A DNA stretch of 59,487 nt. Source: Pseudomonadota bacterium. Lineage in GTDB: Bacteria > Myxococcota_A > UBA796 > GCA-2862545. A model generated the notes under the pieces. The model was not told the DNA's origin, did not search any database, and saw only the letters and a program-made list of their open reading frames with translations. Both the position numbers and the translations under genes were made by a program. The stretch spans positions 1-59,487 of the forward strand of contig CANJMY010000010.1 of NCBI GenBank assembly GCA_947475315.1, given 5' to 3'. Positions 2,842 through 55,989 of the stretch are shown here, one piece after another. Each line of letters begins with the position of its first letter. Position 1 is the stretch's first letter.

Positions 2842-5800
2842 ATGAACGGAACGACCACCAAAAATCGTGACCCCGAATTGGCTGCGACGGCGAAGCGGCC
2901 GGTCAAGCCAAAGCCCGCTCCGGCGGGTACGGCGGCTCCCACCGCGCAGGGCGGAGCTGCGCCCGCAGCGCCGCGTCCCAAGACCGTCCGCCTCAAGCGC
3001 GAGACCCCGCCGCCCACGTCCGTCGGTACGGTCGTGACCAGCGTCGTCACCACCGTGCAGGGCGCCGTGTCCGAGCACCGTCGCGAGCTGCTGCTGATCG
3101 GCGCGCTCGGCTCGGCCGCGTTCACCGCGGTCGCGCTGGTCGGCTGGTCCGCGCAAGACCCGACCTGGGCCCACCCCGTGCTGGACGCGACGGTGGTGGT
3201 CACAAACCCGTGCGGCCCGCTGGGCGCGAACGTGGCGGACCTGCTGTACCGTTCGATCGGCTACGGCGCGTGGGCGCCCGTGGCGCTCGGCTTGGTCGTG
3301 CCGGTCTATGTTCTCGCGCGTCGACCGCTGGTGCCGTGGCCCAAGGCCCTGATGAGCGGCTGGCTGTGGCTGATGACGCTCGGCTTCATGGAGCTGACCT
3401 TCGGCCCGGCGGCCGAGATCGAGCTTCGCCCCGGTGGCCTGCTGGGCGCGTGGGTGTGCAACTCGCTGACCGGCGTGGTCGGCGTGGTCGGCGCGTCCAT
3501 CACGCTCGTCGCCACCATCGTCAGCACCGGCGGCCTGCTCGCCGGCGTGTCCTGGAGCTCCGTCGCCCACCGCGTGCTCGGTCGGGTCGAGGCCGAGCTC
3601 CCGGCGGTCAAGGAGAAGGCGGTCGCTGCGAGCGGTCAGGTCGGCGGCCTCGCGGTCGGTGGCGCCAAGGGTGTGGGGCGTGGCGTGTTTGGCCTGCTGG
3701 TCCGCATCGGCGACGTGTCGATCGGCTCCGTGAAGGGCATGTTCCGCGGCGCGAACACGGTGGTCGCGCGCGCCAAGGACGCGGTCACCCGCACGGACGC
3801 GGACGAGGACGACGGCGCTTGGAGCGCGTCGGGGCTGATCGAGCCGGAGCGCGCCAAGGGGGCTGTGCTGCCGGTGCTCGCGCAGGTTCCTGCGTTCGCG
3901 GGCCCCGACACCGAGGTCGACGATGACACGGCGCCCTCGGCCGAGGTCGCCTGGGAGCCCACCCGCGCTGAGGCCGGGCAGGTGCTTCAGCTCTTCCCGG
4001 AGCTTGGCCGCCGCCGCAAGGGCGACGGGCCCCACGCGGAAGACATGGACGAGCCGGTCCGCGTGGCTCGCCGCGCGCCCGTGGCCCCCGCGGCTGCGCC
4101 CGCGCTGGCCGACGTCGCCGCCACGCCCCGCCGTCCGACGCGTCGCGCCAAGGTCGTGGTCGCCGCGGTGCACGAACCGCGCACGCTCGCCCCGGCGGAC
4201 GACTCCGACGTGGACGACGACGAGGTCGAGACCGGCTCGTTCCCGGCCGTGGTGTCTGCGCTCGCCTCGAACCACCGCCCGGAGGACGACCCCTTCGAGG
4301 CGATCGACCCTGCCAACATGCCCACCACCGCCGAGCACCGCCCGGTGGCCATGGACATCCGCGTGGAGCCGGCCAGCGGCCTGCAGACCTCGCCCAAGAC
4401 CGATGACGGCCAGTCCGTGTCGGACCGTGGCTCGCTGTTCTTCGAGCTGCCGCCGCTCTCGCTGCTCGACCCGGTCCCGGAGCAGACCGCCTACATCGAC
4501 GAGGACGCGCTGCGCCGCATGGCCGGCACCGTCGAGGAGGCGCTCGCCAGCTTCAAGGTCACGGGCAAGGTCACCGACGTGCGCGTTGGCCCTGTCGTCA
4601 CGATCTTCGAGTTCCAGCCGGACCCGGGCATCATGGTGCGCCGCGTGTCCAACCTCGCCGACGACCTGGCGATGGTGCTCAAGGCCCGCAGCGTGCGCGT
4701 CGTGGCCCCCATCCCCGGCAAGGGCGTGGTCGGCATCGAGATCCCCAGCCAGGACCGCCTGACCATCTACCTGCGCGAGCTGCTCGCCAGCACAGAGTTC
4801 CGGACGTCTGACGCGGACCTCCCCGTCGTGCTCGGCAAGGACGTCGAGGGCCGACCGGTCGTCGACGATCTGGCGAAGATGCCGCACCTGCTCGTCGGCG
4901 GCACCACAGGCTCGGGCAAGTCGGTCGGCGTCAACGCGATGCTGATGTCGCTGCTCTACACCCGCACCCCCGAAGAGCTGCGCCTGATCCTGGTCGACCC
5001 GAAGAAGCTCGAGTTCGAGGCCTACTCGGGCGTGCCGCACCTGCTTCACCCGGTCATCACCGACCCGCAGATCGCGGCCGCCGCGTTGGCCTGGGCCTGC
5101 CGCGAGATGGACCGCCGCTACGAGTTGCTGGCCCGCTGGGGCACCCGCAACATCTCCGGTTACAACAAGAAGGTCGCCCGCGAGCTCAAGAGCTGGAGCG
5201 CCGAGAAGGCCCGCAGCTACGCGCCCGCCGACTGGCCCGACGAGATCCCGCCGCCCAAGGCCGAGTCGCTGCCCTTCATCGTCATCGTCATCGATGAGCT
5301 CGCCGACCTGATGATGGTCGCCAAGAAGGACGTGCAGGACAGCATCGTCCGCCTCACGCAGATGGCCCGCGCCTGCGGCATGCACCTTATCTGCGCCACG
5401 CAGCGCCCGTCCGTCGACGTGGTCACGGGCCTGATCAAGGCGAACATGCCCACGCGCATCGCCTTCAAGCTGCGCTCGGTCATCGACTCCCGCACCATCC
5501 TCGATCAGGGCGGCGCTGAGAAGCTGCTCGGTCGCGGCGACCTGCTCTGGCTCCCGGGCGCGGGCGAGGTCCGTCGCGTGCACGGCCCGTTCGTCTCGGA
5601 CGACGAGGTCCACCGCCTGATCGCGTTCCTCCGCGCGCAGCGTGATCCCGAGTACATCGAGACGCTCCGTCCCGTTTCGTCCGGAGATGGCGAGGACGCC
5701 CTCTTCGACGACCCCGAGATGCAGGACGATCTCTATGACCAGGCCCTGCAGATCGTGGTCGAGAAGGGCAAGGCCAGCACGTCGATGGTGCAGCGCCACC

Positions 5801-17501: not shown

Positions 17502-18590
17502 ATGCCCTCCCACGCCCTCGCACACGACGACCAAGGCCGGATCGACCTGCGCTCGCTGGACTGGGACGCGTTCCGGGCGTTGGTGGTCGACGAGTGGGGC
17601 GACTCGGCCACGCGCGCGCGTCGAGTGTTCCGCCACATCTGGACCCAGCCGTTCACGTCGTTCGAGGTCATCCCCAACCTGGCCCTCGCGACGCGGCGGA
17701 TGCTGGAGCAGCGCGCCTACGTGCCGACACTCCAGACCGAGCAGATCATCGAGTCCGAGGACGGTACGACCAAGTTCCTCTGGCGCTGTGAGGACGGCGC
17801 CGTGATCGAGTCGGTGCTGATCCCCGACAACGATCGCCTGACCTTGTGCATGTCGAGCCAGGTGGGCTGCGCGATGGCCTGCACGTTCTGCCTCACCGGC
17901 GACATGGGCCTGAAGCGGCAGCTCAAGGCGTCTGAGATCGCCATGCAGCCGCTGCTGGTGGGGCTCTCGCTGCCGCCTGAGAAGCGCATCGCCAACCTCG
18001 TGCTCATGGGCATGGGCGAGCCGCTGCACAACCTGGACAACCTGGTCCCGGCGCTCACGCTGTGCATGGACGATCACGGCCTGAACTTCGGCCACCGCAA
18101 GATCACCGTGTCCACCGTGGGCTTGGTCCCGAAGATGGCTGAGCTGGCGGCCGCGCTGCCGGTGAACCTGGCCGTGTCGATCAACGCGACCACGGAAGAG
18201 CAGCGCCGCCAGATCATGCCGATCACGCGCAAGCACAGCCTGGCCGAGCTGCTGGACGCCTGCCGCGCGTTCCCGCTGCCGTCGGGCAAGAGCATCCTGT
18301 TCGAGTACGTCATGCTCGCCGGCTTCAACGACACCGACGAGGACGCGGTGCGGCTGGCGGATCTGCTCGAAGGGATCCCCAGCAAGATCAACCTGATCCC
18401 GTACAACGAGAACCCGGATCGCGACCTGCGCCGCCCCGGGCCCGAGCGCGTCACGGCCTTCCAGGCCCTGCTGATGCAGCGCGGCTACTTCACCAAGGTG
18501 CGCATCACGCGAGGCATCGACGTGTCGGCCGCGTGTGGTCAGCTCGGCAAGGCGCGGCAGCGCAACGCCCCCCTGAGCGCGACCGCCTAG
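17502..18590 (+). CDS. rlmN: 23S rRNA/tRNA adenine C2-methyltransferase RlmN (radical SAM)
   Basis: Radical-SAM CAMACTFC cluster, conserved MSSQVGC, and a C-terminal Cys-containing GQLG motif. Confidence 0.9.
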   Translation: MPSHALAHDDQGRIDLRSLDWDAFRALVVDEWGDSATRARRVFRHIWTQPFTSFEVIPNLALATRRMLEQRAYVPTLQTEQIIESEDGTTKFLWRCEDGAVIESVLIPDNDRLTLCMSSQVGCAMACTFCLTGDMGLKRQLKASEIAMQPLLVGLSLPPEKRIANLVLMGMGEPLHNLDNLVPALTLCMDDHGLNFGHRKITVSTVGLVPKMAELAAALPVNLAVSINATTEEQRRQIMPITRKHSLAELLDACRAFPLPSGKSILFEYVMLAGFNDTDEDAVRLADLLEGIPSKINLIPYNENPDRDLRRPGPERVTAFQALLMQRGYFTKVRITRGIDVSAACGQLGKARQRNAPLSATA

Positions 18591-19597
18591 GACGCCTTGT
18601 TCGCGTCCCGGCTGCGCCGCACCGACCCGACCAGATCGATCCCGCGCAGCGCCATGAAGATCAGGCCCAGCACGGCCGTGAAGCCGAACGCGTACAGGTG
18701 GTAGGCGACGCCGTACACCCGCGCGAGGTTCGGGTCGTAGCCCAGCACCGCGAGCGAGCCCGCCGCGCCGGCCTCGAAGCTGCCGAAGAAGCCGGGCGTG
18801 GGCACCAGCGTGATGGCGGTGAGCGTGGCGGCCCAGGAGAACATGGCCTCGTCTAGGCGCGCGCCCAGGCCGGGGAAGCCGTGCATCGCGGTCCAGCAGG
18901 CGAGCACGCCGACCACCCAGATGCCGCCGGTGAGCAGCACGGCGACCGCCGCGTCGCGCGGGCGGGACGCCAGGGTGCGAAAGCCCTCGACGAACGTGGT
19001 GCCCATGCGCCCGACCTTGCCCGCGAGGGACATCGACACCCTCCCCACGACGCGCTCGAGGAAGCGCACCGCGGGAAGCCCGACGATCGCCAGCGTGCCG
19101 ACGCCGACCAGCGCGGTGGCGACGGCGCTGCCGATGGTCCACTGTCCCACCTTGATCAGGTCGACGCCCTTCACGACCACGTCGCGATCCGGCATGTCGA
19201 GCGCCACCAGCGCCAACAGCACCAGCAGCCCGATCAGGTCGAGCACGCGCTCCAGCACCACCGCGGCCACGCCGTGGCCGAACTCGATCTTGTAGCGCTC
19301 GGCCAGCAGGTAGGGGCGGACGAACTCGCCCATGCGCAGCGGCACCACGTTCACCGCCAGGAAGCTGACCGCGACCACGCCGAACAGGTCGCGGAAGGGG
19401 ACCGGGGCGCGCAGGAGCAGCTTGTAGCGGGCCGTCCGAATGACCGAGGCCACCAGGTACAGGGCGGTGAGCGGGAACAGCACGGCCAGGTGCGCCTGCG
19501 ACAGCGCCAGACGGGCGTCCTCGACCTTGAGGCCCCAGAGGACCGCGATCAGGCAGCCGGCGGTCACGAGCAGGACGGCGACGAGGCTCCAGCGCAT
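18587..19597 (-). CDS. MprF-like flippase-domain membrane protein (UPF0104 / lysylphosphatidylglycerol-synthase TM-domain family)
   Basis: ~8 TM helices with a family-typical R/K-rich loop (RTARYKLLLRAPVPFRDLF). Transcribed divergently from the glycosylation operon. Confidence 0.6.
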   Translation of the reverse strand: MRWSLVAVLLVTAGCLIAVLWGLKVEDARLALSQAHLAVLFPLTALYLVASVIRTARYKLLLRAPVPFRDLFGVVAVSFLAVNVVPLRMGEFVRPYLLAERYKIEFGHGVAAVVLERVLDLIGLLVLLALVALDMPDRDVVVKGVDLIKVGQWTIGSAVATALVGVGTLAIVGLPAVRFLERVVGRVSMSLAGKVGRMGTTFVEGFRTLASRPRDAAVAVLLTGGIWVVGVLACWTAMHGFPGLGARLDEAMFSWAATLTAITLVPTPGFFGSFEAGAAGSLAVLGYDPNLARVYGVAYHLYAFGFTAVLGLIFMALRGIDLVGSVRRSRDANKAS

Positions 19598-19776
19598 GAA
19601 CAGCACCCGTGCCACGACGCGCAGGCGAGACCAGGACGCCCGCGTCGGCGAGGGTGGTCCCATTACCGGCCAATCCCAGGCCACGCAAGCCGCTCCCCGT
19701 CGACGATCCGGGGCCCGCGTGCTAGGCCGCCGCGCCCGTCCTATGCATGCACCAGGGTCGGCAACCCGGAGCCCCC

Positions 19777-20367
19777 ATGGGCGAACACTCCAGCAGCAAC
19801 CTTGGCAAGTACCAGTCCGGCAACCCGGTCGTTCAGGGCCTCCTGACCCGGTACCAGGACACCCTGGCGTCGCTGCTCGTGCCGCTGGCGCCCACCTCCG
19901 TGCTCGACGTGGGCGCGGGTGAGGGGATGACCGCGGCCAAGCTCCACACCCTGCCGCTCTCGTTCCGCTACAAGGGCATCGACCTGAGCCCCGGCGCGGT
20001 CGACGAGGCCCGTCGGCGCAACCCGGGCCTGGACTTCCAGCAGGGCAGCGTGTTCGAGCTCGGCGGCCAGACGGCCGACGTCGTCTTGTGCCTTGAGGTC
20101 ATCGAGCACCTCGAAGACCCGGCCAAGGCCATCGACGCGCTGGCCGACGCCGCGGAGCGCGCGATCATCGTCAGCGTCCCGTGGGAGCCTTGGTTTCGCC
20201 TCGGCAATCTGGCGCGCGGCAAGTACCTGGACCGCCTCGGGAACCACCCCGAGCACATCCAGCAGTTCAACCCGACGAGCATCGCGGCCCTGCTGTCCAC
20301 GCGCTTCACCCACGTTCGGGTCAAGACGTCCTTCCCGTGGGTGTTCGCGTGCGCGGACAAGCGCTGA
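19777..20367 (+). CDS. Class I SAM-dependent methyltransferase
   Basis: Motif I VLDVGAGEG and post-I/II motifs (VVLCLEVIEHLEDP). Confidence 0.75.
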   Translation: MGEHSSSNLGKYQSGNPVVQGLLTRYQDTLASLLVPLAPTSVLDVGAGEGMTAAKLHTLPLSFRYKGIDLSPGAVDEARRRNPGLDFQQGSVFELGGQTADVVLCLEVIEHLEDPAKAIDALADAAERAIIVSVPWEPWFRLGNLARGKYLDRLGNHPEHIQQFNPTSIAALLSTRFTHVRVKTSFPWVFACADKR

Positions 20368-21962
20368 TCCGACGGCTGGCGCCGGTCGCCCTGCTGTGGG
20401 CGCTGGTGTTGCTCTTCGCGTGCGCCACGCTGCCGCTGCCGTTCGGCCGCGACCAGGGCATCTACGCCTACACGGCGGACCGCTTCCTCCAGGGGGACGC
20501 GCTCTACCGCGACATCTACGTGTTCAAGCCGCCGTTGACGGTGTTCGTGCACGCGCTGGCCATCGCCTTGTTCGGCCGTTCGATGACCTCGATCCGCGAG
20601 CTGGACGTGCTGTGGACGCTGGCCACCGCCACCGCGATCTACGCGTTCGTGAAGCTCGCGTGGCGTGACTCGCGCGCGGTGATGGCGTCGTCGTGGGCGG
20701 CGATCGCGGCGGGCGTCAGCTTCGCTGTCTTCTACCACCACACCGACTACTGGAACTCCGCGCAGACCGACGGCTGGGCCAACCTGCCATCCGTGCTCGG
20801 CATGCTGCTGCTGTTCGTGGAGCAGGGCCGCCGTCGCACCGCGCGCTTCGCCGCCGGCTTCCTGATCGGCGTGGCGTTCCTGTTCAAGTACACGCTGGGC
20901 GGCCTGCTGCCGCTAGCGTTTGTGCTGCTCTTCCTGCTCCGCGGCCCGTCTGCGTTTCGCGACGCGGTCGCGCTGGTCTGGGGCTTCGTCGCCAGCATCG
21001 TCGCGCTCATCGTCGTCATGGCGCTCGACGGCGGCCTGATGCCGTTCCTGCACAGCCAGCTTGAGGTGCTGCTGCCCTACGCCGGCGCGCCCAAGGCGGG
21101 TCGTAATTGGGGAGGCGCCACCCACACCCTCTGGCTCATGCCGGACGGTCTGGTGGAGGCGGCGCTCGTGGGCCTCGCCCTCGCGGTGGTCACGCTGCTC
21201 GTGCGGGTGTTCGTGAGGGATCCGGAGCGTCGGCGCGAGTCGGTCGCCACGCTCGCGGTGGTGGGCTGGACGGCGAGCGCCGCGACGTCGGTGATCGTGC
21301 AGGGCCGCTTCTTCCCGTACCACTACCTGCCGCTGCACGCGCCGATGGCGCTGCTGGTCGCCTACTCGGCGTCGCGCGTGCTCGACTTCCTCCCGGCGCG
21401 GGTTCAGCCGTGGCTCGCGGCGCTGGCGCTGGCGGGGCTGGTCGGGGCGAGCGTGACGGACGACCCGTACCCCAACCGCCTGGCGCTGGTTCAGAAGCAG
21501 CTGTCGGACCCGACCGCGTTCGCCACCGGCTGGGAGAAGGGCGCGTACCGCAACCGCGACATGGCCCTGGTCGACGATCAGGCGATGGCCGACTGGCTCG
21601 ACGAGCACACGCTCCCGAACGAGCGCGTGTTCCTGTGGACGTACGATCCGATGATCTACTTCCTCGCCAACCGCCGCCTGGTGTCGCGCTTCCTCTACAC
21701 GTACCCGCTGGTGGTCACGTGGGGGCCTGACACCTACGATCAGGAGCTGCTCGAGGACCTCAAGGCCACGCCGCCCGCGGTGTTCGTCGTGGGCTCCCGC
21801 GACGCCACGCCGCCGGTCATGGGCCACAAGCTCGACAGCGTCGGCACGTTCGACAGGTCCGGCCCGCTCAAGGAGTGGGTGCTCGAGAACTACGAGGAAG
21901 TGACGACCGTGAACAACCGCTTCCACGTCTATGAACAGAAGCAGCCCGGAGTGGCCCCATGA
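20349..21962 (+). CDS. Multi-pass membrane protein, GT-C-fold glycosyltransferase-like (PMT_2/GT39-like)
   Basis: ~11 predicted TM helices and a large periplasmic C-terminal domain. Weak GT-C similarity. The GTG start overlaps the methyltransferase 3' end. Confidence 0.5.
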   Translation: MRGQALIRRLAPVALLWALVLLFACATLPLPFGRDQGIYAYTADRFLQGDALYRDIYVFKPPLTVFVHALAIALFGRSMTSIRELDVLWTLATATAIYAFVKLAWRDSRAVMASSWAAIAAGVSFAVFYHHTDYWNSAQTDGWANLPSVLGMLLLFVEQGRRRTARFAAGFLIGVAFLFKYTLGGLLPLAFVLLFLLRGPSAFRDAVALVWGFVASIVALIVVMALDGGLMPFLHSQLEVLLPYAGAPKAGRNWGGATHTLWLMPDGLVEAALVGLALAVVTLLVRVFVRDPERRRESVATLAVVGWTASAATSVIVQGRFFPYHYLPLHAPMALLVAYSASRVLDFLPARVQPWLAALALAGLVGASVTDDPYPNRLALVQKQLSDPTAFATGWEKGAYRNRDMALVDDQAMADWLDEHTLPNERVFLWTYDPMIYFLANRRLVSRFLYTYPLVVTWGPDTYDQELLEDLKATPPAVFVVGSRDATPPVMGHKLDSVGTFDRSGPLKEWVLENYEEVTTVNNRFHVYEQKQPGVAP

Positions 21963-22897
21963 TCCGCTTCAGCGTCGTGATCCCCGCCTACAATGAGGTG
22001 GGGACGGTGCAAGAGCTCTACGACCGCGTGGTCGCCGTGCTCACCAAGATGAACGAGCCCTGGGAGATCGTGTACGTCGACGACGGCTCCCACGACGGCA
22101 CCAGCGAGGCGCTCGACAAGCTCGCCGCGTCGGACGACCGCATCGTGGTCATCCACCAGCCGGGCAACTTCGGCAAGTCGGCGGCGTACACTGCGGCCTT
22201 CCGACGCCTTCGCGGCGAGATCGTCTTCACGCTCGACGCCGACCTGCAGGACGAGCCGGGCGAGATGCCCAACCTGCTGGCCGCCATCCAGGGCGGGAGC
22301 GATCTGGTGATCGGCTGGAAGCGCGGCCGCATGCAGAACGAGCCGCTCAAGCGCATCCCGTCGGGCGTGTTCAACGCCATGATGACGCGCAGCTTCGGCC
22401 TGAAGCTGACCGACTCCAATTCGGGCATCCGCGGCATGACGCGCGCGGTGGTCGACACCTTGGTGCTCTACGGTGATCTGTACCGCTTCATCCCGCAGCT
22501 CGCGCACACGGCGGGCTTTCGCGTGACGGAGATCCCGGTCGAGCACCACGCGCGCAAGCACGGCGTCTCCAAGTACGGCGCCAAGCGCTTCTGGACCGGC
22601 GCGCTGGACCTGCTGACGGTGCGCTTCCTGACCCGCTACCGCGAGCGCCCGCTGCACTTCTTCGCCACCGCCGGCCTGGGCCCGCTGGTGCTCGGCACGC
22701 TCATCGAGCTGCTGGTGCTGGCGGCCAAGCTCGCGGGCCACACCTTCCAGGAGCACGTGGCCGCGATCATCGTCGGTGTGCTGCTGATCCTGCTCGGCTT
22801 CCAGGCGATCGCCGTGGGCTTGATCGCGGAGCTGATCAGCGGTCAGCTTCAGCACATACGTCACGAGCGAGATCGATCGGAAAGTCGTCCACGGTAG
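21959..22897 (+). CDS. Polyprenyl-phosphate sugar synthase, GT2 (DPM1/GtrB/ArnC-like)
   Basis: FSVVIPAYNE, VDDGSHDGT and DADLQDEP (the DxD motif), plus two C-terminal TM helices as in GtrB. Confidence 0.85.
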   Translation: MIRFSVVIPAYNEVGTVQELYDRVVAVLTKMNEPWEIVYVDDGSHDGTSEALDKLAASDDRIVVIHQPGNFGKSAAYTAAFRRLRGEIVFTLDADLQDEPGEMPNLLAAIQGGSDLVIGWKRGRMQNEPLKRIPSGVFNAMMTRSFGLKLTDSNSGIRGMTRAVVDTLVLYGDLYRFIPQLAHTAGFRVTEIPVEHHARKHGVSKYGAKRFWTGALDLLTVRFLTRYRERPLHFFATAGLGPLVLGTLIELLVLAAKLAGHTFQEHVAAIIVGVLLILLGFQAIAVGLIAELISGQLQHIRHERDRSESRPR

Positions 22898-24518
22898 GGG
22901 GGTGCTCGACGGCAGCGATGGTCTTCGCGCACGCGTTGCGCGCCGCCTGGCCCCACTTCGCGATCGGCATCGGGCGCAGCACCAGGCTGTCGCCCGGGTG
23001 GTCGTACACCGTCTGCGTGCCGTAGATCAGCACGTCGCGGCCCATGAAGCCGAGGATGGGTGAGTCGAACAGGCGCTCGCGGTCCATGGGGATCCACGCG
23101 CCCGGGTTGTCTCGCAGCGCGATGCACAGGTCTTCCAGGTTGCGCAGCACCGGCCAGCCGATCCAGTAGTCGGACAGCTCGCCGTGCTCGTTCTTGCGGG
23201 TGTAGCGGTCGCGGCGCCAGGTGGGGCCAGCGATGAACGCCACCTCGGTCTGGTCCTTGAGCATCAGCCCGAACACCGGGGGGATCACGGCGTAGACGGG
23301 CTCGCCGGGCATGCGGTGCGCCTCGACGTAGTCGAGCGACGGGCGGAAGTCCTCGTCGACCAGCGGGTCGTACAGCCGGTAGAACGCGCCCCAGATCAGC
23401 ATGCCGAGCACGACTGAGCCGACCAGCTGCGTGCCGATCCGGATCCAGCGGCCGGCGCCCACCGACGCGTCGAGCGCGTAGGCGAGCATGGCGATCGCGA
23501 AGGGCTGCATCGGCAGCAGGTAGCGGGGCTGCTGATCGGAGAGGAGGAACGCCACGGTGAGCAGCGGCATGGCGTACAGCGCGATCAGCGCGCCCAGGTC
23601 GGCGTCCACGCGGCGCTCGCGGCGGATGTGGAGCAGCCAGGAGATCAGCAGCCCGACCGCCACCGTCAGGAACAGGGGCGGCACCACCAGCATCCCGGGC
23701 AGGTCGCCATACAGCTTGATCAGGCCGTCCAGGCGCGGCGCGATCAGCCGGCGGTAGTTGATCAGGTGGTTACCGACGAACGCGGGCACCTCGGTGCTCT
23801 TGCTGCTCGACACGCCGAACCACGTGTTCACCGCCAGGAACAGCGCGGGGCCGCCCAGCGAACCAGCCAGACCGAGCGTGGGCACCAGGCCCTCATGGAA
23901 GACACGCTTGCGGTACACGGCGAGCGTCAGCACCACCATGCCGGGCCACAGCATCAGCCCGCCGAGGTGCGTGAAGGTGACCAGCGCGAACGTGAAGATA
24001 AGCCCGATCGCGGCGAACTTGTCCTGCTTCACGAGCGCGCGGTGGAAGAGCACCGCGAGCGCGATGCACATCGTCTCCAGCAGGCCGTACGGGCGGATGT
24101 TCGCGCCCCACTGCAAGGTCAGCGGATCGACGGCGAGCATGAACGCGGCGAGCGTGGCGGCCGACGTGCGGCCGGTCAGGTCGCGCACGAACTGAAAGAG
24201 AAGGGGGATGCCAAACGTGCTGGCGACCACCGTGACCAAGCGCAGCACGGACAGGTCCCACGCGTCGTCCCAGCCCAGGATGGCGAGCGGCGCCATCAGG
24301 TAGGACATGGTGCAGCCCTGCAGGTAGAGCACGCCGGACGTGAACACGGGGAACCCGGTCGCGACCACGCGCAGCGACGCGAGCTGGCTCGCCGCCTCGT
24401 CGGTGTGCGGGGACAGGTGCAGCGCCGCGTAGAGCCTAAGCCCAAACGCGAGCGCCATCAGCCCCAGGACGACGAGGGTCGGCCGGGGCTCAGGACCCCT
24501 TGGTGCCGATTCCCGCAT
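22836..24518 (-). CDS. ArnT/PMT-family GT-C glycosyltransferase (polyprenyl-P-sugar dependent)
   Basis: DE motif in the first periplasmic loop (PHTDEAAS), ~12 TM helices, and a C-terminal periplasmic domain. Its 3' end overlaps the GT2 3' end by ~62 bp. Confidence 0.7.
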   Translation of the reverse strand: MRESAPRGPEPRPTLVVLGLMALAFGLRLYAALHLSPHTDEAASQLASLRVVATGFPVFTSGVLYLQGCTMSYLMAPLAILGWDDAWDLSVLRLVTVVASTFGIPLLFQFVRDLTGRTSAATLAAFMLAVDPLTLQWGANIRPYGLLETMCIALAVLFHRALVKQDKFAAIGLIFTFALVTFTHLGGLMLWPGMVVLTLAVYRKRVFHEGLVPTLGLAGSLGGPALFLAVNTWFGVSSSKSTEVPAFVGNHLINYRRLIAPRLDGLIKLYGDLPGMLVVPPLFLTVAVGLLISWLLHIRRERRVDADLGALIALYAMPLLTVAFLLSDQQPRYLLPMQPFAIAMLAYALDASVGAGRWIRIGTQLVGSVVLGMLIWGAFYRLYDPLVDEDFRPSLDYVEAHRMPGEPVYAVIPPVFGLMLKDQTEVAFIAGPTWRRDRYTRKNEHGELSDYWIGWPVLRNLEDLCIALRDNPGAWIPMDRERLFDSPILGFMGRDVLIYGTQTVYDHPGDSLVLRPMPIAKWGQAARNACAKTIAAVEHPPTVDDFPIDLARDVCAEADR

Positions 24519-25800
24519 AGACGAACCCCTGGCCACGCAAGCCGTAACCGGACCAGATGTTGCGGCAGTCGAACAGGATCGGCGTGTGCATCAGCCCGCG
24601 CACGCGATCGAAGTCCGGGTTCTGGTACTCACGCCATTCGGTCATGAGCACCAGCGCGTCGGCGGCTTGGACCGCCGTGTAGGCGTCCTCCACCACGTTG
24701 ACCTTGTCGCCGAAGTGCGCGCGCACGGCGTCGCGGGCCTCGGGGTCGTGCGCGGCGACGATGGCGCCATCGCTGACCAGTGCGTCGATCAGCGTGATGG
24801 CGGCGGACTCGCGCAGGTCGTCGGTGCGGGGCTTGAACGTGCAGCCCCAGATCGCCACGCGCTTGCCGCGCACGTCACCGCCCAGCATGGCGCGGAGCTT
24901 GCGGTAAATCAGGCTGCGCTGGCGGCTGTTCACGCGGTCGGTCGCCGCGGCGAGCTCGATCTCCAGGCCGTGCTGACGGCCGGTGTGGACCAGCGCGGAC
25001 ACGTCCTTGGGGAAGCAGCTGCCGCCGTAGCCGGGGCCCGCGTACAGGAACTTGGTGCCGATGCGGCTGTCGCTGCCGACCGCCTCGCGCACGCGGTGGA
25101 TGTCCGCGCCGACCACGTCGCACATCGCGGCGACCTCGTTCATGAACGAGATGCGCATCGCGAGCATGGTGTTGGCGACGTACTTCGTGAGCTCGGCGCT
25201 GGGCGGGTCCATCCAGATGATGCGGTTCCGGTCCAGACAGAGCGGGTGGTAGAGCCGCGCCATCAGGTCGACCGCGAAGCTGTCCTCCTCGTCGCAGCCG
25301 ATCACGATGCGATCGGGGCGCAGGAAGTCGGCCACGGCGTCGCCCTGCTTGAGGAACTCAGGGTTGGACACCACGTGGATCGGGTGCGCGCTGCCCTCGA
25401 CGATGCGGCGGATGCGCTCGTTGGTGCCGACCGGCACGGTGCTCTTGAGCACCAGGATCAGCTCGCGGCCCACGGCCTTGGCCACCCAGGTGGCGACCGT
25501 GTCCACCTGCGTCAGATCGGCGCCGCCGTCCTTGCGGGTGGGGGTGCCGACGCAGATGAACACAAGCTGCGCCGCCGCGATCTCTTCGTCCGACGGGAGC
25601 GCGAACGACAGGCGCCCGGCCTCGACGTTGCGCGCGACGAGATCGTCGAGGCCCGGCTCAAAGATGGGGATCTCGTTGCGACGGAGGGCGTCGATCTTGG
25701 CTTGGTCGAGGTCGAGACAGACCACCCGGTTGCCCATCTCGGCGAACCCGGCACCCGTGACCAGTCCGACGTACCCTGTGCCAACGACGCAGACGCGCAT
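24490..25800 (-). CDS. ugd: UDP-glucose 6-dehydrogenase
   Basis: NAD-binding VVGTGYVGLVTG, the catalytic Cys region GGSCFPKD, and full UDPG_MGDP_dh domain order. Confidence 0.9.
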   Translation of the reverse strand: MRVCVVGTGYVGLVTGAGFAEMGNRVVCLDLDQAKIDALRRNEIPIFEPGLDDLVARNVEAGRLSFALPSDEEIAAAQLVFICVGTPTRKDGGADLTQVDTVATWVAKAVGRELILVLKSTVPVGTNERIRRIVEGSAHPIHVVSNPEFLKQGDAVADFLRPDRIVIGCDEEDSFAVDLMARLYHPLCLDRNRIIWMDPPSAELTKYVANTMLAMRISFMNEVAAMCDVVGADIHRVREAVGSDSRIGTKFLYAGPGYGGSCFPKDVSALVHTGRQHGLEIELAAATDRVNSRQRSLIYRKLRAMLGGDVRGKRVAIWGCTFKPRTDDLRESAAITLIDALVSDGAIVAAHDPEARDAVRAHFGDKVNVVEDAYTAVQAADALVLMTEWREYQNPDFDRVRGLMHTPILFDCRNIWSGYGLRGQGFVYAGIGTKGS

Positions 25801-28343: not shown

Positions 28344-29183
28344 TTAGGGGTGCGTGTAGCCGGCCACGTCGAGCGAGGTGGTGGTGGCGACCTTGTAGGC
28401 GCCGCGCTCCCAGAACAGAACGCCGTTGAGGCTGGAGAAGCTGTCGGTGTTGCCCAGGCCCGGGTAGTCCGCGAGCACGTCGTAGAAGCGCGGCGTCATC
28501 AGGACTTCGTCGCTCCCGCCCACGGTCGTGACCTTGACCTCGCCGTAGCCGTTGCGGTTGCTGACCACGTTGAGCGGGCCGTCCACGTGGACGCGCATGC
28601 TCTCGTAGGTCTCGGCGACGGACGGGTCGAGGATGTCGGCGAGGGTCAGCGTGACCGGCTCGGGCAGCGCGGCGGCGCCCGTCACGTTGAAGTACGAGCT
28701 GGTGTCGATCGGGTCGATCACGATGGTGGAGAGCGCGTCCACGCTCGTGCCGCCGACCGGATCCTCGACGTAGACGCCGACGAAGTCGAGCAGGTCGCCG
28801 ATCTCCGGCATGTCCTGGGTGTTGTCCAGGTCAAGGTAGAGGCCGGCGTTGTCGGTGTAGGCGGGGTCCTGCACGATCACGCCGTTGCTCGCGGGCGGGG
28901 TGACTCGGTAGCGAACCGCGGTGACGACCAGGTCGTGGAAGTGCAGGTACGAGTTGAGCGTGTAGATGCCGGCGTGTACGAACGGCACCTTCGCGTACTC
29001 GAGCTGCACGTCGGTGTCGGTCGTGTCGGTGTCGGCGACTTCGGTGTCGGCGACGTCGGTGTCGGCGGCGACGTCCGTGTCGTCGAGGTTGTTCCCAGTG
29101 GCGTCGGTGTCTTCGTTGCCGGTGCCCTTGGCGTCACAAGCGGTGAGGGCGAGAGCAGCGAGCAGGAAAGCAGAGGGACGCAT
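28344..29183 (-). CDS. Lipoprotein with an N-terminal DTDV acidic tandem repeat; hypothetical
   Basis: Lipobox LALTAC followed by DTDVAADTDVADTEVADTDTTDTDV; the rest has no recognisable family. Confidence 0.55.
   Translation of the reverse strand: MRPSAFLLAALALTACDAKGTGNEDTDATGNNLDDTDVAADTDVADTEVADTDTTDTDVQLEYAKVPFVHAGIYTLNSYLHFHDLVVTAVRYRVTPPASNGVIVQDPAYTDNAGLYLDLDNTQDMPEIGDLLDFVGVYVEDPVGGTSVDALSTIVIDPIDTSSYFNVTGAAALPEPVTLTLADILDPSVAETYESMRVHVDGPLNVVSNRNGYGEVKVTTVGGSDEVLMTPRFYDVLADYPGLGNTDSFSSLNGVLFWERGAYKVATTTSLDVAGYTHP
29009..29084. repeat. DNA-level tandem repeat (period ~15 nt: gtcggtgtcggcgac) encoding the DTDV units
   Basis: gtcggtgtcggtcgtgtcggtgtcggcgacttcggtgtcggcgacgtcggtgtcggcggcgacgtc. 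Confidence 0.5.
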
Positions 29184-53745: not shown

Positions 53746-55989
53746 ATGGGCACACACCTCCAGGCCCCGGCGCGTGGTTCGACGCCGGAGTCTTCCGACA
53801 GCGCATCCAAGACCCGGGGATCACCTGGGAACAGCCGCGCCCAGGCGCGCCTCGCGCCGTCGTCCGTGCCCTCCGCAGCCAGCGTGCTCGCCGGCGTCGG
53901 AGAGGGTGGTCTGGCAGGAGAGCCGCCGCCCGGTGGGGCGTCGCCTGGGGACCTGTTCGCGGCAGCGACCGATGGCGGCGGCGGGTCGCTGCCGTACGCG
54001 GCCGAGATGGGCGTGGCGTTCGGTGTCGACCTGTCCGACGTCTCGGCGCACGTGGGGCAGCCGGGCCCGCTCGGGGCGATGGGGGCGCGGGCCGCGACAG
54101 ATGGGCGCTCGGTGGCCTTCGCCGATGCGTCCCCGGCCCGGTCGACGGTCGCGCACGAGATCGCCCATGTGGCGCAGCAGCGCAGCTCGGGTGGTGGCAC
54201 AGGCGGCGTGCATGCGTCGTCGACCGTGAGCCGTCCGGGTGATGCCTCTGAGGTGGAGGCCGATCGCGCGGCTGCCGACGTGGTCGCGGGGCGGACGCCG
54301 ACCGTGACCGAGGCGCCGGGTGCTGGGGTGATCAGCCTTGAGGCCGATCCTCGGGCCTACGCACCCACGCCGACGATGGGGGGCGTGCAGCGCGAGGCCG
54401 ACTTCGGCGACACCTTCTCCAGCACGCCCGGCGCCGTCCGTCCGAGCGCGAGCGTCGCGCCCGGCGAGTCGACCGTGATGAACATCACGGTCGAGCACGA
54501 CCGCGAGCACCCGCTTGACTTGGGTGTGGGCGATACACCTGCGGAGGAGGAGCTGTTCACCGTCGTGAACCGGGAACCGGTGTCCACGGCCGACACCCTC
54601 TCCATCACGCAGAAGTTCGGATCCACTCAGGCCCCGAACGTGCGCCCCATCCCGGACCCCACGTCGATGTACATCGGCGGCGCGCCGCAGCTCGACGACT
54701 TGAGCCAGGGCGGGATCGGCGACTGCTGGCTGATGGCCGCGCTCTCCAACGTCGTGTCCCGCGATCCGAACAAGATCCCGTCGATGATGACCTTCACCCC
54801 GACCACGGTCTCGGCGACCTTCCACCACTTCGACAACAGCACGCCGCCCGGGCGCTGGGTCGCCGCGACCATGACCACGGCCAACACGCTCCTGCACTAC
54901 CAGGACCCCGCCGATCCCACCGCCACCTACGAGCTGGTCGGGGCCGGACTGCGCCGCGCCGACGAGCCCTCCGGCAGCCTGTGGTACGGCTTCGTGCGTG
55001 GATCGGACCTGTATGTGGTGCGGCGCGACAAGTACGAGGTCGCGCTGTGGGCGCCGATGATCGAGAAGCTCTACGCGCAGTTCACCGAGGCGTTCGGGCA
55101 GTACGGCGGCGGCCCGTCCCCGCGCGAGGGCTCCGAGCCAGGCGGCGCGGGCTCGACGACGTCTGGCTACCAGAACATCGACGGCGGCTGGGAGGATCAG
55201 GCCTACCCGGTGTTCTACGGCGCGAACGTGGTGTCGCACGGGCAGGAGGACATCAACTACACGCCCAACACCAACCCGGTGCTCGCCAACCAGGGGGCGA
55301 TCGCCAACCTGCTCCGCCTCGCGGGGGAGGGGGTGCCCGCGGACCAGACGTTCATGCTGTCGGTCGACCTGGACCAGGGCAGCGCCGTGGCGCGCCTGCG
55401 GCAGCTCATCGACTTTGTCGTCGGCGACCGCGACAGTCGGCGCTACCCGACGCTGCGCAACGCGCTGGTCGCGCTCGGCACCCGCTGCGACGACTACACC
55501 GGCGCGCCCGCTGGAGGACCGGTCGAGGCCGCTGCGCTGTCGAGCCTCGCGCGCGACGCTGAGGCGCACGCCCGCCCGACAGCGTGGCCGATGCTGTCGA
55601 GCCCCAGCGCGCTGCCGCGCTACCACGAGCTCTACGAGCTGCTCAACACCATCAAGAGCTTGGGCACCGACCACAGCCCTGGCCGGCGCAACACCTACGC
55701 CGATCACGCCTACCCGGTGTTGGGCGCCAGCTTCGTCGGGATCGACGGGAACGCGCTCACGCTCACCCAGGCCACCCTGGCCGCAGAGGCCGCGAACATC
55801 GACCCGGCGGCGTCGACGGTGCGGATGCGCAACCCGCACCACACCAACGAGCCAAACGTGCCCACGTCCGCCCGCGACGCGAACCCCAACGACGGCCTGT
55901 TCACCCTGTCGCTGGACCAGTACCTCCGAGACTTCGCGCTCCAGCAGGTCGCGCTCGTCCGCAACACACCCGCGCCGGCCGGACCATGA
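53746..55989 (+). CDS. DUF4157 (eCIS-cargo-type HExxH domain) fused to a calpain-like cysteine protease (peptidase C2) with a disordered N-terminus
   Basis: ~80 aa S/G/P/A-rich N-terminus. DUF4157 block: EMGVAFGVDLSDVSAHVGQPGPLGAMGARAATDGRSVAFADA...VAHEIAHVAQQ...EVEADRAAADVV. Calpain catalytic signatures: QGGIGDCWLMAALSNV (Cys), DHAYPVLG (His), RMRNPHH (Asn). The true start may lie a few codons upstream (GTG/TTG). Confidence 0.7.
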   Translation: MGTHLQAPARGSTPESSDSASKTRGSPGNSRAQARLAPSSVPSAASVLAGVGEGGLAGEPPPGGASPGDLFAAATDGGGGSLPYAAEMGVAFGVDLSDVSAHVGQPGPLGAMGARAATDGRSVAFADASPARSTVAHEIAHVAQQRSSGGGTGGVHASSTVSRPGDASEVEADRAAADVVAGRTPTVTEAPGAGVISLEADPRAYAPTPTMGGVQREADFGDTFSSTPGAVRPSASVAPGESTVMNITVEHDREHPLDLGVGDTPAEEELFTVVNREPVSTADTLSITQKFGSTQAPNVRPIPDPTSMYIGGAPQLDDLSQGGIGDCWLMAALSNVVSRDPNKIPSMMTFTPTTVSATFHHFDNSTPPGRWVAATMTTANTLLHYQDPADPTATYELVGAGLRRADEPSGSLWYGFVRGSDLYVVRRDKYEVALWAPMIEKLYAQFTEAFGQYGGGPSPREGSEPGGAGSTTSGYQNIDGGWEDQAYPVFYGANVVSHGQEDINYTPNTNPVLANQGAIANLLRLAGEGVPADQTFMLSVDLDQGSAVARLRQLIDFVVGDRDSRRYPTLRNALVALGTRCDDYTGAPAGGPVEAAALSSLARDAEAHARPTAWPMLSSPSALPRYHELYELLNTIKSLGTDHSPGRRNTYADHAYPVLGASFVGIDGNALTLTQATLAAEAANIDPAASTVRMRNPHHTNEPNVPTSARDANPNDGLFTLSLDQYLRDFALQQVALVRNTPAPAGP

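Follow-up and report, generated by a model that had tools for sequence, protein, structure and literature searches.

In the cluster of six genes located between positions 18,587 and 25,800 of contig CANJMY010000010.1, the core is probably a self-contained module for periplasmic glycosylation. It is of the three-component type, which consists of a sugar synthase acting on a lipid carrier, a flippase and a transferase of the glycosyltransferase C (GT-C) fold. The analyzed stretch is 59.5 kb of chromosomal DNA with ~70% GC from an uncultured soil or lake bacterium (the stretch is called the window in the following), in which codon-position GC statistics singled out one reading frame per stretch. 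The cluster encodes a family 2 glycosyltransferase (GT2), two GT-C transferases (GT-C1 and GT-C2), a class I S-adenosylmethionine (SAM) methyltransferase (MT), a flippase-like membrane protein of the family PF03706 and the UDP-glucose 6-dehydrogenase Ugd. An initial annotation, made from the letters alone, had assigned the six genes in the same way and combined them into a pathway of polyprenyl-phosphate sugar synthase, candidate flippase and periplasmic GT-Cs. Pfam, NCBIfam and structure matches bear out these assignments, and the pathway logic holds. Homologous loci (L numbers) were collected by a GT-C1 profile scan of species-representative genomes, which yielded 80 loci, and contigs encoding individual homologs were looked up in addition. 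L010, a 95%-identical contig of a metagenome-assembled genome (MAG; Kiruna_bin-11227), served as reference for the ratio of nonsynonymous to synonymous substitutions (dN/dS).

The GT2 belongs to the polyprenyl-phosphate glycosyltransferases (Pren-P GTs). Residues 93–98 of its catalytic GT-A domain read DADLQD, which corresponds to the family motif described as 94DADLQD99 in GtrB, 100DADLQN105 in ArnC and 89DADLQH94 in DPMS (PMC12690121). Two hydrophobic helices at the C-terminus (residues 234–261 and 261–295) form the two-helix membrane anchor. Among solved structures, ArnC (9bhc) was the closest relative with an E-value of 1e-41 over residues 3–297, followed by the Synechocystis GtrB (5ekp; E 1e-28, residues 2–297) and the Pyrococcus DPMS (5mlz; E 1e-19). 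Sequence identity amounted to 32% with E. coli ArnC and to 25% with YfdH, the GtrB protein of the E. coli prophage CPS-53. The best phage matches were GT2s sharing 34–41% identity within the catalytic domain only. The NCBIfam models of ArnC (PRK10714) and PgfS were matched with 159.9 and 135 bits at cut-offs of 529 and 500 bits, respectively. The earlier designation as GtrB/ArnC-like is thus correct at the level of the Pren-P GT family, but the protein fits neither ArnC nor the prophage GtrB specifically. An ArnC equivalog was rejected on the basis of this score and because genes for an aminotransferase, a formyltransferase or a deformylase were absent within 10 kb. Likewise, a phage-type GtrB synthesizing undecaprenyl-phosphate (Und-P)-glucose was not supported, given the low identity to YfdH and the lack of a small GtrA-like open reading frame (ORF) that would fit into the tiled cluster. 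Since the scores lie far below the equivalog cut-offs and the identities are low, the sugar cannot be read from the sequence. Within the module, conservation is highest for the GT2, whose orthologs of 55–78% identity adjoin GT-C1 in eight lineages.

The AlphaFold 2 (AF2) model of GT-C1 (predicted local distance difference test (pLDDT) score of 92) displays the ArnT-like GT-C(A) fold with a C-terminal periplasmic alpha/beta domain. ArnT (GT83) is its closest solved relative at ~13–22% identity; the profile match was marginal (E 8.6e-5) and no NCBIfam model was matched. The metal/phosphate site of C. metallidurans ArnT comprises Asp55, Glu84, Lys85 and Arg270. Asp35 and Lys60 of GT-C1 align with Asp55 and Lys85 of ArnT, and both GT-C1 residues are conserved in 32 homologs. 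In contrast, ArnT Glu56 is replaced by Gln36, giving RDQ where ArnT has PDE, and ArnT Glu84 by the phenylalanine preceding Lys60. Orthologs of GT-C1 in module loci are 34–51% identical. Its reading frame is open back to position 20181, and the start at 20349 is favored by gene callers and by the homologs.

For GT-C2, the PMT_2 match was just under the cut-off and a sequence search against solved structures in the PDB gave no match. The AF2 model (pLDDT 74) was related by Foldseek to STT3, ArnT, PglB, Pmt4 and ALG9 (E-values of 3e-8 to 5e-7 for STT3, ArnT and PglB), confirming a GT-C fold, and it contains a C-terminal periplasmic domain like ArnT and GT-C1. The first transmembrane (TM) helix is followed by the motif SPHxDE (SPHTDE in the window), of which D40 and E41 are invariant in five homologs. 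Comparison of the two GT-Cs with hhalign (probability 85%, 15% identity) indicated that they are distant paralogs. Both keep the acidic residue of loop 1, which the initial annotation had named as critical for their assignment; the DE loop that it had described for the ArnT/PMT-type GT-C is literally present in GT-C2 only. Neither protein qualified as a PMT (GT39) proper, as there was no MIR domain match, the DE motif was restricted to GT-C2 and a C-terminal soluble domain was present instead. The GT-C2 family comprised 174 cluster representatives at E<=1e-30 in a full HMMER scan of 1.84 billion proteins; a word-indexed search returned only 5 proteins, even with a profile. Orthologs of GT-C2 reside within the module in L091, L013 and L015. 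A metagenome scan for GT-C2 revealed 16 loci, all with stand-alone relatives. In L099–L102, the N-terminal membrane part and the C-terminal periplasmic domain of GT-C2 matched separate sites on opposite strands with a few kb between them, so the C-terminal domain also occurs in another protein.

The PF03706 protein (365 amino acids (aa)) scored 131.7 bits with the Pfam model (cut-off 33.4) and 70.8 bits with TIGR00374 (cut-off 43.2), which places it in the MprF/PplT/UPF0104 family. It contains about eight hydrophobic segments. The protein stands alone without an aminoacyl-phosphatidylglycerol synthase domain and is therefore not an MprF proper; a phmmer search against solved structures, MprF included, gave no match. 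An ortholog with 42% identity is encoded directly upstream of GT-C1 in L110. As the homology between the two proteins begins at residue 30, the ATG at 19597 may be the true start of the gene in the window. In L013, L015 and L112, the operon includes a PF03706 gene of a second subtype. The stretch PxRxG(E/D)xxR is common to the window protein and the L013/L015 subtype, but otherwise the two subtypes barely align, which means that the family was either recruited twice or diverged very fast. Compared with L010, the gene exhibited a dN/dS of 0.086. The linkage makes the PF03706 protein a candidate flippase for a lipid-linked sugar. Lipid flipping has been demonstrated only for the MprF domain acting on aminoacyl-phosphatidylglycerol, and the function of the near-universal PF03706 family is considered open (bioRxiv 10.1101/2022.03.11.483950). 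A role of UPF0104 as glycosylation flippase was predicted in 2015 from its fusion to AglD and from an archaeal neighborhood with PMT/STT3-like GT-C and AglD-like GT2 genes (PMC5898192). Stand-alone UPF0104 genes are also found in the glycolipid operons gpgSDF and hexSDF, where the flipping role of GpgF is a prediction (PMC12713373).

The MT carries no TM segment. Being soluble, it can act only on the cytoplasmic side. Its orthologs (35–59% identity) adjoin GT-C1 and GT2 in L006, L111, L013, L015, L086 and L112 and share the invariant motifs LDxGCGEG (SAM binding), EVxEHL and GNHPEH, the last one lying ~45 residues after EVxEHL. The search for a substrate among solved relatives gave no significant result: only bacterial Hen1 reached the GNHPEH region (E 0.17), which we regard as a lead only. 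Furthermore, MT-GT2 fusions beside GT-C1 relatives were detected in Polyangiaceae MAGs (L027, 11572–12747; L043, ~4118–5536; L065, ~3452–4882; all on the minus strand). They combine a class I methyltransferase domain with a GT2 that resembles dolichyl-phosphate hexose transferases and is devoid of C-terminal TM helices. Tight linkage and the fusion to GT2s similar to polyprenyl-phosphate hexose synthases argue for a modification of the sugar; the MT would methylate the lipid-linked sugar or, less likely, its nucleotide precursor. The initial annotation had not foreseen that the MT would be one of the module members with the most constant linkage.

To what extent the cluster is conserved was derived from divergent Myxococcota-like MAG lineages. 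GT2 and GT-C1 were linked in eight of them, accompanied by the MT in five or six, by PF03706 in four, by GT-C2 in three and by Ugd in two. In the control set of 59 GT-C1-family loci, each of at least 10 kb and without a GT2 ortholog, PF03706, MT and Ugd occurred once each and GT-C2 not at all. At the lineage level, the enrichment of PF03706 was significant (Fisher p = 2e-4). L013 and L015 contain the genes in the order GT-C1-GT2-MT-PF03706-GT-C2 as one co-directional operon with unrelated flanks. In L110, PF03706, GT-C1 and GT2 follow each other with overlapping stops and starts. The arrangement Ugd-GT-C2 convergent with GT2-GT-C1 is found in L091 as in the window, at 51% identity of the GT-Cs. 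L006/L111 display a small GT2-MT-GT-C1-GT2 cluster, L086 combines GT-C1-GT2 with a convergent MT gene and L011 carries GT-C1-GT2-MT-like. In L112, GT2-MT-PF03706 are located 4 kb from GT-C1 with TIR/AAA_35 genes inserted between them. Conservation of the gene set, on which the initial annotation had made its pathway depend, is thus evident in divergent genomes that differ in gene order and in the flanking genes: synthase, candidate flippase and GT-C co-occur in unrelated contexts. A gene for a conserved candidate target protein does not travel with the module, as the flanks differ in every lineage. The core consists of GT2, GT-C1 and MT, which are frequently joined by PF03706 and GT-C2; Ugd is an accessory and the genes at 25.9–31.3 kb are mere neighbors.

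Some of these loci displayed further features. The genes splitting the module in L112 (11695–14952, opposite strand) encode AAA_35 and TIR_2 proteins and are defense-system-like. Polytopic membrane proteins without a Pfam match directly adjoin GT-C1 in L112 (8475–10004) and L113 (7894–9198). Each has an acidic pair immediately behind TM helix 1 (FFTDDAW and CETDDVLW), and they may be further GT-C-like partners; kinship to GT-C2 was not detectable. The MAG Ki3-D2_bin-0965 possesses two GT-C1 paralogs, one in the five-gene operon L013 and the other one alone on another contig (L012).

All six ORFs of the window exhibited the codon-position GC pattern of real genes, with a GC content at third positions of 0.90–0.96 in a window of 70% GC. 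They are intact in L010 with dN/dS values of 0.07–0.16, demonstrating purifying selection. The genes (Table 1) abut or overlap, by 19 nt between MT and GT-C1, 4 nt between GT-C1 and GT2, 29 nt between Ugd and GT-C2 and 62 nt between the convergent 3′ ends of GT2 and GT-C2. They tile the region from 18,587 to 25,800 and therefore leave no space for another gene. Three transcription units were deduced: the flippase-like gene reading to the left, MT-GT-C1-GT2 reading to the right from the same short intergenic region, and Ugd-GT-C2 reading to the left and converging on GT2. When the cluster and the stretches between its genes were scanned for sigma-70-like promoters, terminators and inverted repeats, no signal exceeded that of shuffled sequences. 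Divergent promoters are presumed to lie in the divergent intergenic region, which spans 62–92 bp, or 150–180 bp with 19597 as start of the flippase-like gene. The convergent overlap of GT2 and GT-C2 (22836–22897) leaves no space for a terminator, and the divergent contig L091 has the same overlap with a length of 44 nt. Since the C-terminal tails of GT2 and GT-C2 are poorly conserved, this overlap may be mere read-through to the next stop codon.

Table 1. Genes and divergent intergenic region of the glycosylation cluster in the window.
Feature	Position	Strand	Evidence
PF03706 flippase-like gene	18587–19684	-	PF03706 LPG_synthase_TM, E 5e-38; TIGR00374
Divergent intergenic region	19685–19776		position only
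Class I SAM methyltransferase (MT), 196 aa	19777–20367 (start possibly 19747)	+	Methyltransf_23/11/25
GT-C1, 537 aa	20349–21962	+	PMT_2, E 8.5e-10
GT2, 312 aa	21959–22897	+	PF00535, E 3e-33
GT-C2, 560 aa	22836–24518	-	weak PMT_2, 24.7 bits
Ugd (UDP-glucose 6-dehydrogenase)	24490–25800	-	TIGR03026, 420 bits

Ugd contains three UDPG_MGDP_dh domains and reached 419.9 bits with TIGR03026 (cut-off 189.8). Its scores against the solved UDP-glucose dehydrogenases BceC of B. cepacia (2y0c; 411 bits) and 4a7p (410 bits) clearly exceeded that against GDP-mannose dehydrogenase (168 bits), in agreement with a UDP-glucose 6-dehydrogenase. The gene lies upstream of GT-C2, and co-transcription is predicted in the lineage of the window. 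Linkage to the module was limited to L010 and L091, whereas L006, L013, L015, L086 and L112 had no ugd gene at distances of up to 10 kb from the module. Ugd was therefore rejected as a core member and is a lineage-specific accessory. In this lineage it may supply UDP-glucuronic acid (UDP-GlcA) or a derivative, but as the linkage is not conserved, UDP-GlcA is only weakly indicated as donor precursor. Genes of the ArnA, ArnB and ArnD type were absent within 10 kb of the cluster, as already noted for ArnA and ArnB in the initial annotation. An epimerase for uronates is not linked to the module either, the sole epimerase of the window being a GalE equivalog 17 kb away.

Families and folds were assigned, catalytic-loop residues identified and gene linkage established; from these results we infer the individual reactions, the sequence in which methylation and flipping occur and the flippase role as follows. 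The ArnC/GtrB-type GT2 would load one sugar from a nucleotide sugar onto undecaprenyl phosphate at the membrane's cytoplasmic face. The soluble MT would modify this sugar while it is bound to the nucleotide or, more likely, at the stage of the lipid-linked intermediate. As its linkage suggests, the PF03706 protein would then move the lipid-linked sugar to the periplasmic leaflet, replacing GtrA or ArnE/F. Finally, the two ArnT-like GT-Cs would use the donor to decorate two sites or two acceptors in the diderm envelope.

Several observations weigh against this interpretation. Relatives of GT-C1 with at most 33% identity usually stand alone, and those of GT-C2 with 30–46% identity often do so. 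The GT-C2 model was built from a five-sequence alignment and is of only moderate confidence. The similarity of the MT to solved proteins covers nothing but the generic SAM-binding core. Moreover, all carriers of the module are uncultured MAGs or metagenome contigs. Three lineages with GT2, GT-C1 and MT (L006/L111 and L086) lack a PF03706 gene within 10 kb, and the two linked PF03706 subtypes are hardly alignable. Where the PF03706 family was studied, it was tied to phospholipids or glycolipids and not to polyprenyl-phosphate sugars (PMC12713373; bioRxiv 10.1101/2022.03.11.483950). These last three points would also fit a PF03706 protein that handles a phospholipid or glycolipid like YbhN/PplT, GpgF and HexF, maybe the acceptor lipid, while the Pren-P sugar crosses the membrane otherwise, e.g. 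with the help of an unlinked GtrA-, SMR- or DedA-type protein. We consider such a role possible but doubtful. Two subtypes were recruited into the module in four lineages as compared to one of the 59 control loci, and in L013, L015, L110 and L112 the gene is located inside an operon with overlapping or abutting frames. In addition, no other flippase candidate fits into the window cluster because the genes tile it fully, and an archaeal neighborhood combining UPF0104, GT-C and GT2 genes is known (PMC5898192).

The nature of sugar and acceptor offers further alternatives. The initial annotation had favored glucuronic acid (GlcA) or a derivative, and the module might modify lipid A or the lipopolysaccharide (LPS) core in a manner similar to the Arn and Rgt systems, with Ugd providing UDP-GlcA, from which Und-P-GlcA, possibly methyl-esterified or O-methylated, would be formed and transferred to lipid A phosphates or core sugars. 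ArnC and ArnT as closest solved relatives of GT2 and GT-C1, the 29 nt overlap of Ugd with GT-C2, the recurrence of the Ugd-GT-C2 arrangement in the divergent L091 and the diderm host with BamA and LolA encoded in the window are all consistent with this proposal. There is also a precedent in Haloferax, where the methyltransferase AglP and the UDP-glucose dehydrogenase AglM belong to one lipid-linked pathway (PMC3871713). However, Ugd accompanies the module only in the lineage of the window and in L091, and the ArnC score of the GT2 is far too low. As ArnA, ArnB, ArnD and a linked uronate epimerase are also missing, GlcA-based lipid A or core modification appears unlikely. Protein O-glycosylation of the PMT/Pgf type would involve a polyprenyl-phosphate hexose made by the GT2 and its transfer by the GT-Cs to serine or threonine residues of secreted or envelope proteins, comparable to actinobacterial Ppm1/Pmt or to PgfS/PgfM1/PgfM2 of S. 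mutans. The Pgf system likewise consists of one GT2 and two GT-Cs, PMT_2 was matched by both GT-Cs of the window, PF02366 (PMT) was matched by some orthologs (P0011, P0016 and GT-C2 of L013) and the GT2 yielded the mentioned 135 bits with PgfS. This score remains far under the cut-off, though; both GT-Cs contain an ArnT-like C-terminal periplasmic domain instead of a MIR domain, and no conserved candidate target gene accompanies the module, which renders this kind of O-glycosylation improbable. Finally, independent envelope genes might be adjacent by chance. The distribution of the cluster over three transcription units in two orientations, the lack of promoter or terminator signals backing any operon structure and the stand-alone distant relatives of each GT-C could be interpreted in this way. 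In contrast, the same families recur in at least seven further lineages, where the gene order is rearranged and the flanks are unrelated, L013 and L015 harbor single co-directional operons and MT-GT2 fusions exist. A fortuitous adjacency is therefore highly improbable.

The preferred three-component-type module resembles several known systems. The phage GtrA/GtrB/Gtr* systems of Salmonella and Shigella, CsbB/GtcA/YfhO of Firmicutes and the pentofuranose systems on which GT136 was founded (PMC11127046) likewise comprise a GtrB/ArnC-type Pren-P GT with DADLQ motif and two C-terminal TM helices, a membrane protein as dedicated candidate flippase and one or more GT-Cs on the periplasmic side in a compact, portable gene set. 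Their flippases belong to the unrelated GtrA, SMR (ArnE/F, Rv3789) and MATE families (PMC11127046), whereas the candidate described here is an eight-TM PF03706 protein. Further differences are the conserved soluble SAM methyltransferase and the affiliation of both GT-Cs with small uncharacterized families. Unlike phage gtr genes, the cluster is chromosomal and surrounded by housekeeping genes, and its GT2 is only distantly related to the E. coli prophage GtrB. With the Arn pathway, which adds 4-amino-4-deoxy-L-arabinose to lipid A, the module shares its nearest solved relatives ArnC and ArnT, the equivalents of ArnT Asp55 and Lys85 and, in this lineage, the adjacent ugd gene. In contrast to the Arn pathway, it lacks ArnA, ArnB, ArnD and ArnE/F and contains an MT and a second GT-C; GT-C1 diverges from ArnT in overall sequence and in the two replaced glutamates, and the GT2 reaches 160 of the 529 bits demanded for ArnC. 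The module may also resemble RgtE/RgtA-D, which galacturonosylate lipid A and core in Rhizobium and in which one ArnC-like GT2 serves several ArnT-like GT-Cs with a uronic acid derived via Ugd. Unlike Rgt, a UDP-GlcA 4-epimerase is not linked here, the Ugd linkage is not conserved, and MT and PF03706 are present.

The combination of families is reminiscent of archaeal UPF0104 neighborhoods, in which an AglD/AglJ-like Pren-P GT2, UPF0104 and a PMT/STT3-like GT-C are encoded together (PMC5898192). The AglD/AglR/AglS pathway of Haloferax includes the UDP-glucose dehydrogenase AglM and the SAM methyltransferase AglP, and a single sugar on its own lipid-phosphate carrier is added outside the membrane (PMC3871713). 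There, however, the flippase role is assigned to AglR and not to the UPF0104 domain. In contrast to these systems, the host of the module is a diderm bacterium, UPF0104 is separate from the GT2 and the cluster is devoid of an AglB/PglB oligosaccharyltransferase. In gpgSDF of Pseudomonas aeruginosa and hexSDF of Clostridioides difficile (PMC12713373), a stand-alone UPF0104 protein is encoded together with a sugar-lipid glycosyltransferase, and flipping is predicted there as well. These operons differ from the module in that a soluble GT4 acts on phosphatidylglycerol or a glycolipid, a deacetylase takes the place of the MT, a GT-C is absent and the modified lipid is the end product.

A 158 kb metagenome contig (ENA ERZ27277814 k141_6761319) contains the window as an identical stretch. 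The window also encodes FtsK, LolA, RecD2, RlmN, RodZ, RecO, PhoH-YbeY, AspRS and BamA, which identifies it as chromosomal DNA of a diderm. For GT-C1, the nearest genome record was that of an 'uncultured proteobacterium' MAG from a lake in Sweden, and MAGs of Myxococcales, Myxococcota and Polyangiaceae came next; a cultured carrier of the module was not found among the records matching GT-C1. The genes at 25.9–31.3 kb, which encode an FGE-sulfatase, a PQQ propeller protein, a hypothetical protein of 279 aa, a desaturase and an SGNH hydrolase, were rejected as module members because their synteny is confined to the 95%-identical L010. An envelope-remodeling island extending over these genes, as envisaged initially, is therefore not supported. 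The 279-aa ORF (28344–29183) exhibited strong coding statistics without a Pfam or NCBIfam match, and at 91% identity in L010 its dN/dS of 0.27 was the highest of the region. Located 16 kb upstream of the module, a Wza/EpsE-like polysaccharide export protein (903–1742) and the GalE equivalog (1739–2722, opposite strand) hint at an exopolysaccharide locus running past the left end of the window. A protein of 747 aa (53746–55989) with an eCIS_core domain (PF13699) and a weak match to calpain-type cysteine proteases is toxin- or effector-like.

Systems of this kind are well known, and no established concept is overturned by the module. New are, for a bacterium, the MprF-type flippase-like protein instead of GtrA or ArnE/F, the conserved and sometimes GT2-fused MT, and two small GT-C families which so far come from uncultured organisms only. 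Full-text literature searches, whose coverage was incomplete, revealed no description of a bacterial module composed of PF03706, an ArnC-like GT2 and a GT-C. Tentatively, the stand-alone MprF-type protein might be a dedicated flippase for an Und-P-linked monosaccharide, the first one in bacterial glycosylation, whose donor is methylated on the lipid and delivered by two unclassified GT-C families of uncultured Myxococcota-like bacteria. If true, this would add a substrate class for the widespread PplT family and a methylated Und-P-sugar to the known donors.

The two small GT-C families and one ortholog group of Pren-P GTs extend the catalog of envelope-modifying enzymes of uncultured Myxococcota. 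The conserved, sometimes fused MT suggests that the sugar is methylated while bound to the lipid carrier, a step for which, to our knowledge, three-component systems offer no described example. Most phyla of bacteria and archaea possess stand-alone PF03706/PplT proteins. With two different PplT subtypes recruited next to a Pren-P sugar synthase and GT-Cs, the module provides the testable hypothesis that some PplT proteins flip polyprenyl-phosphate sugars.

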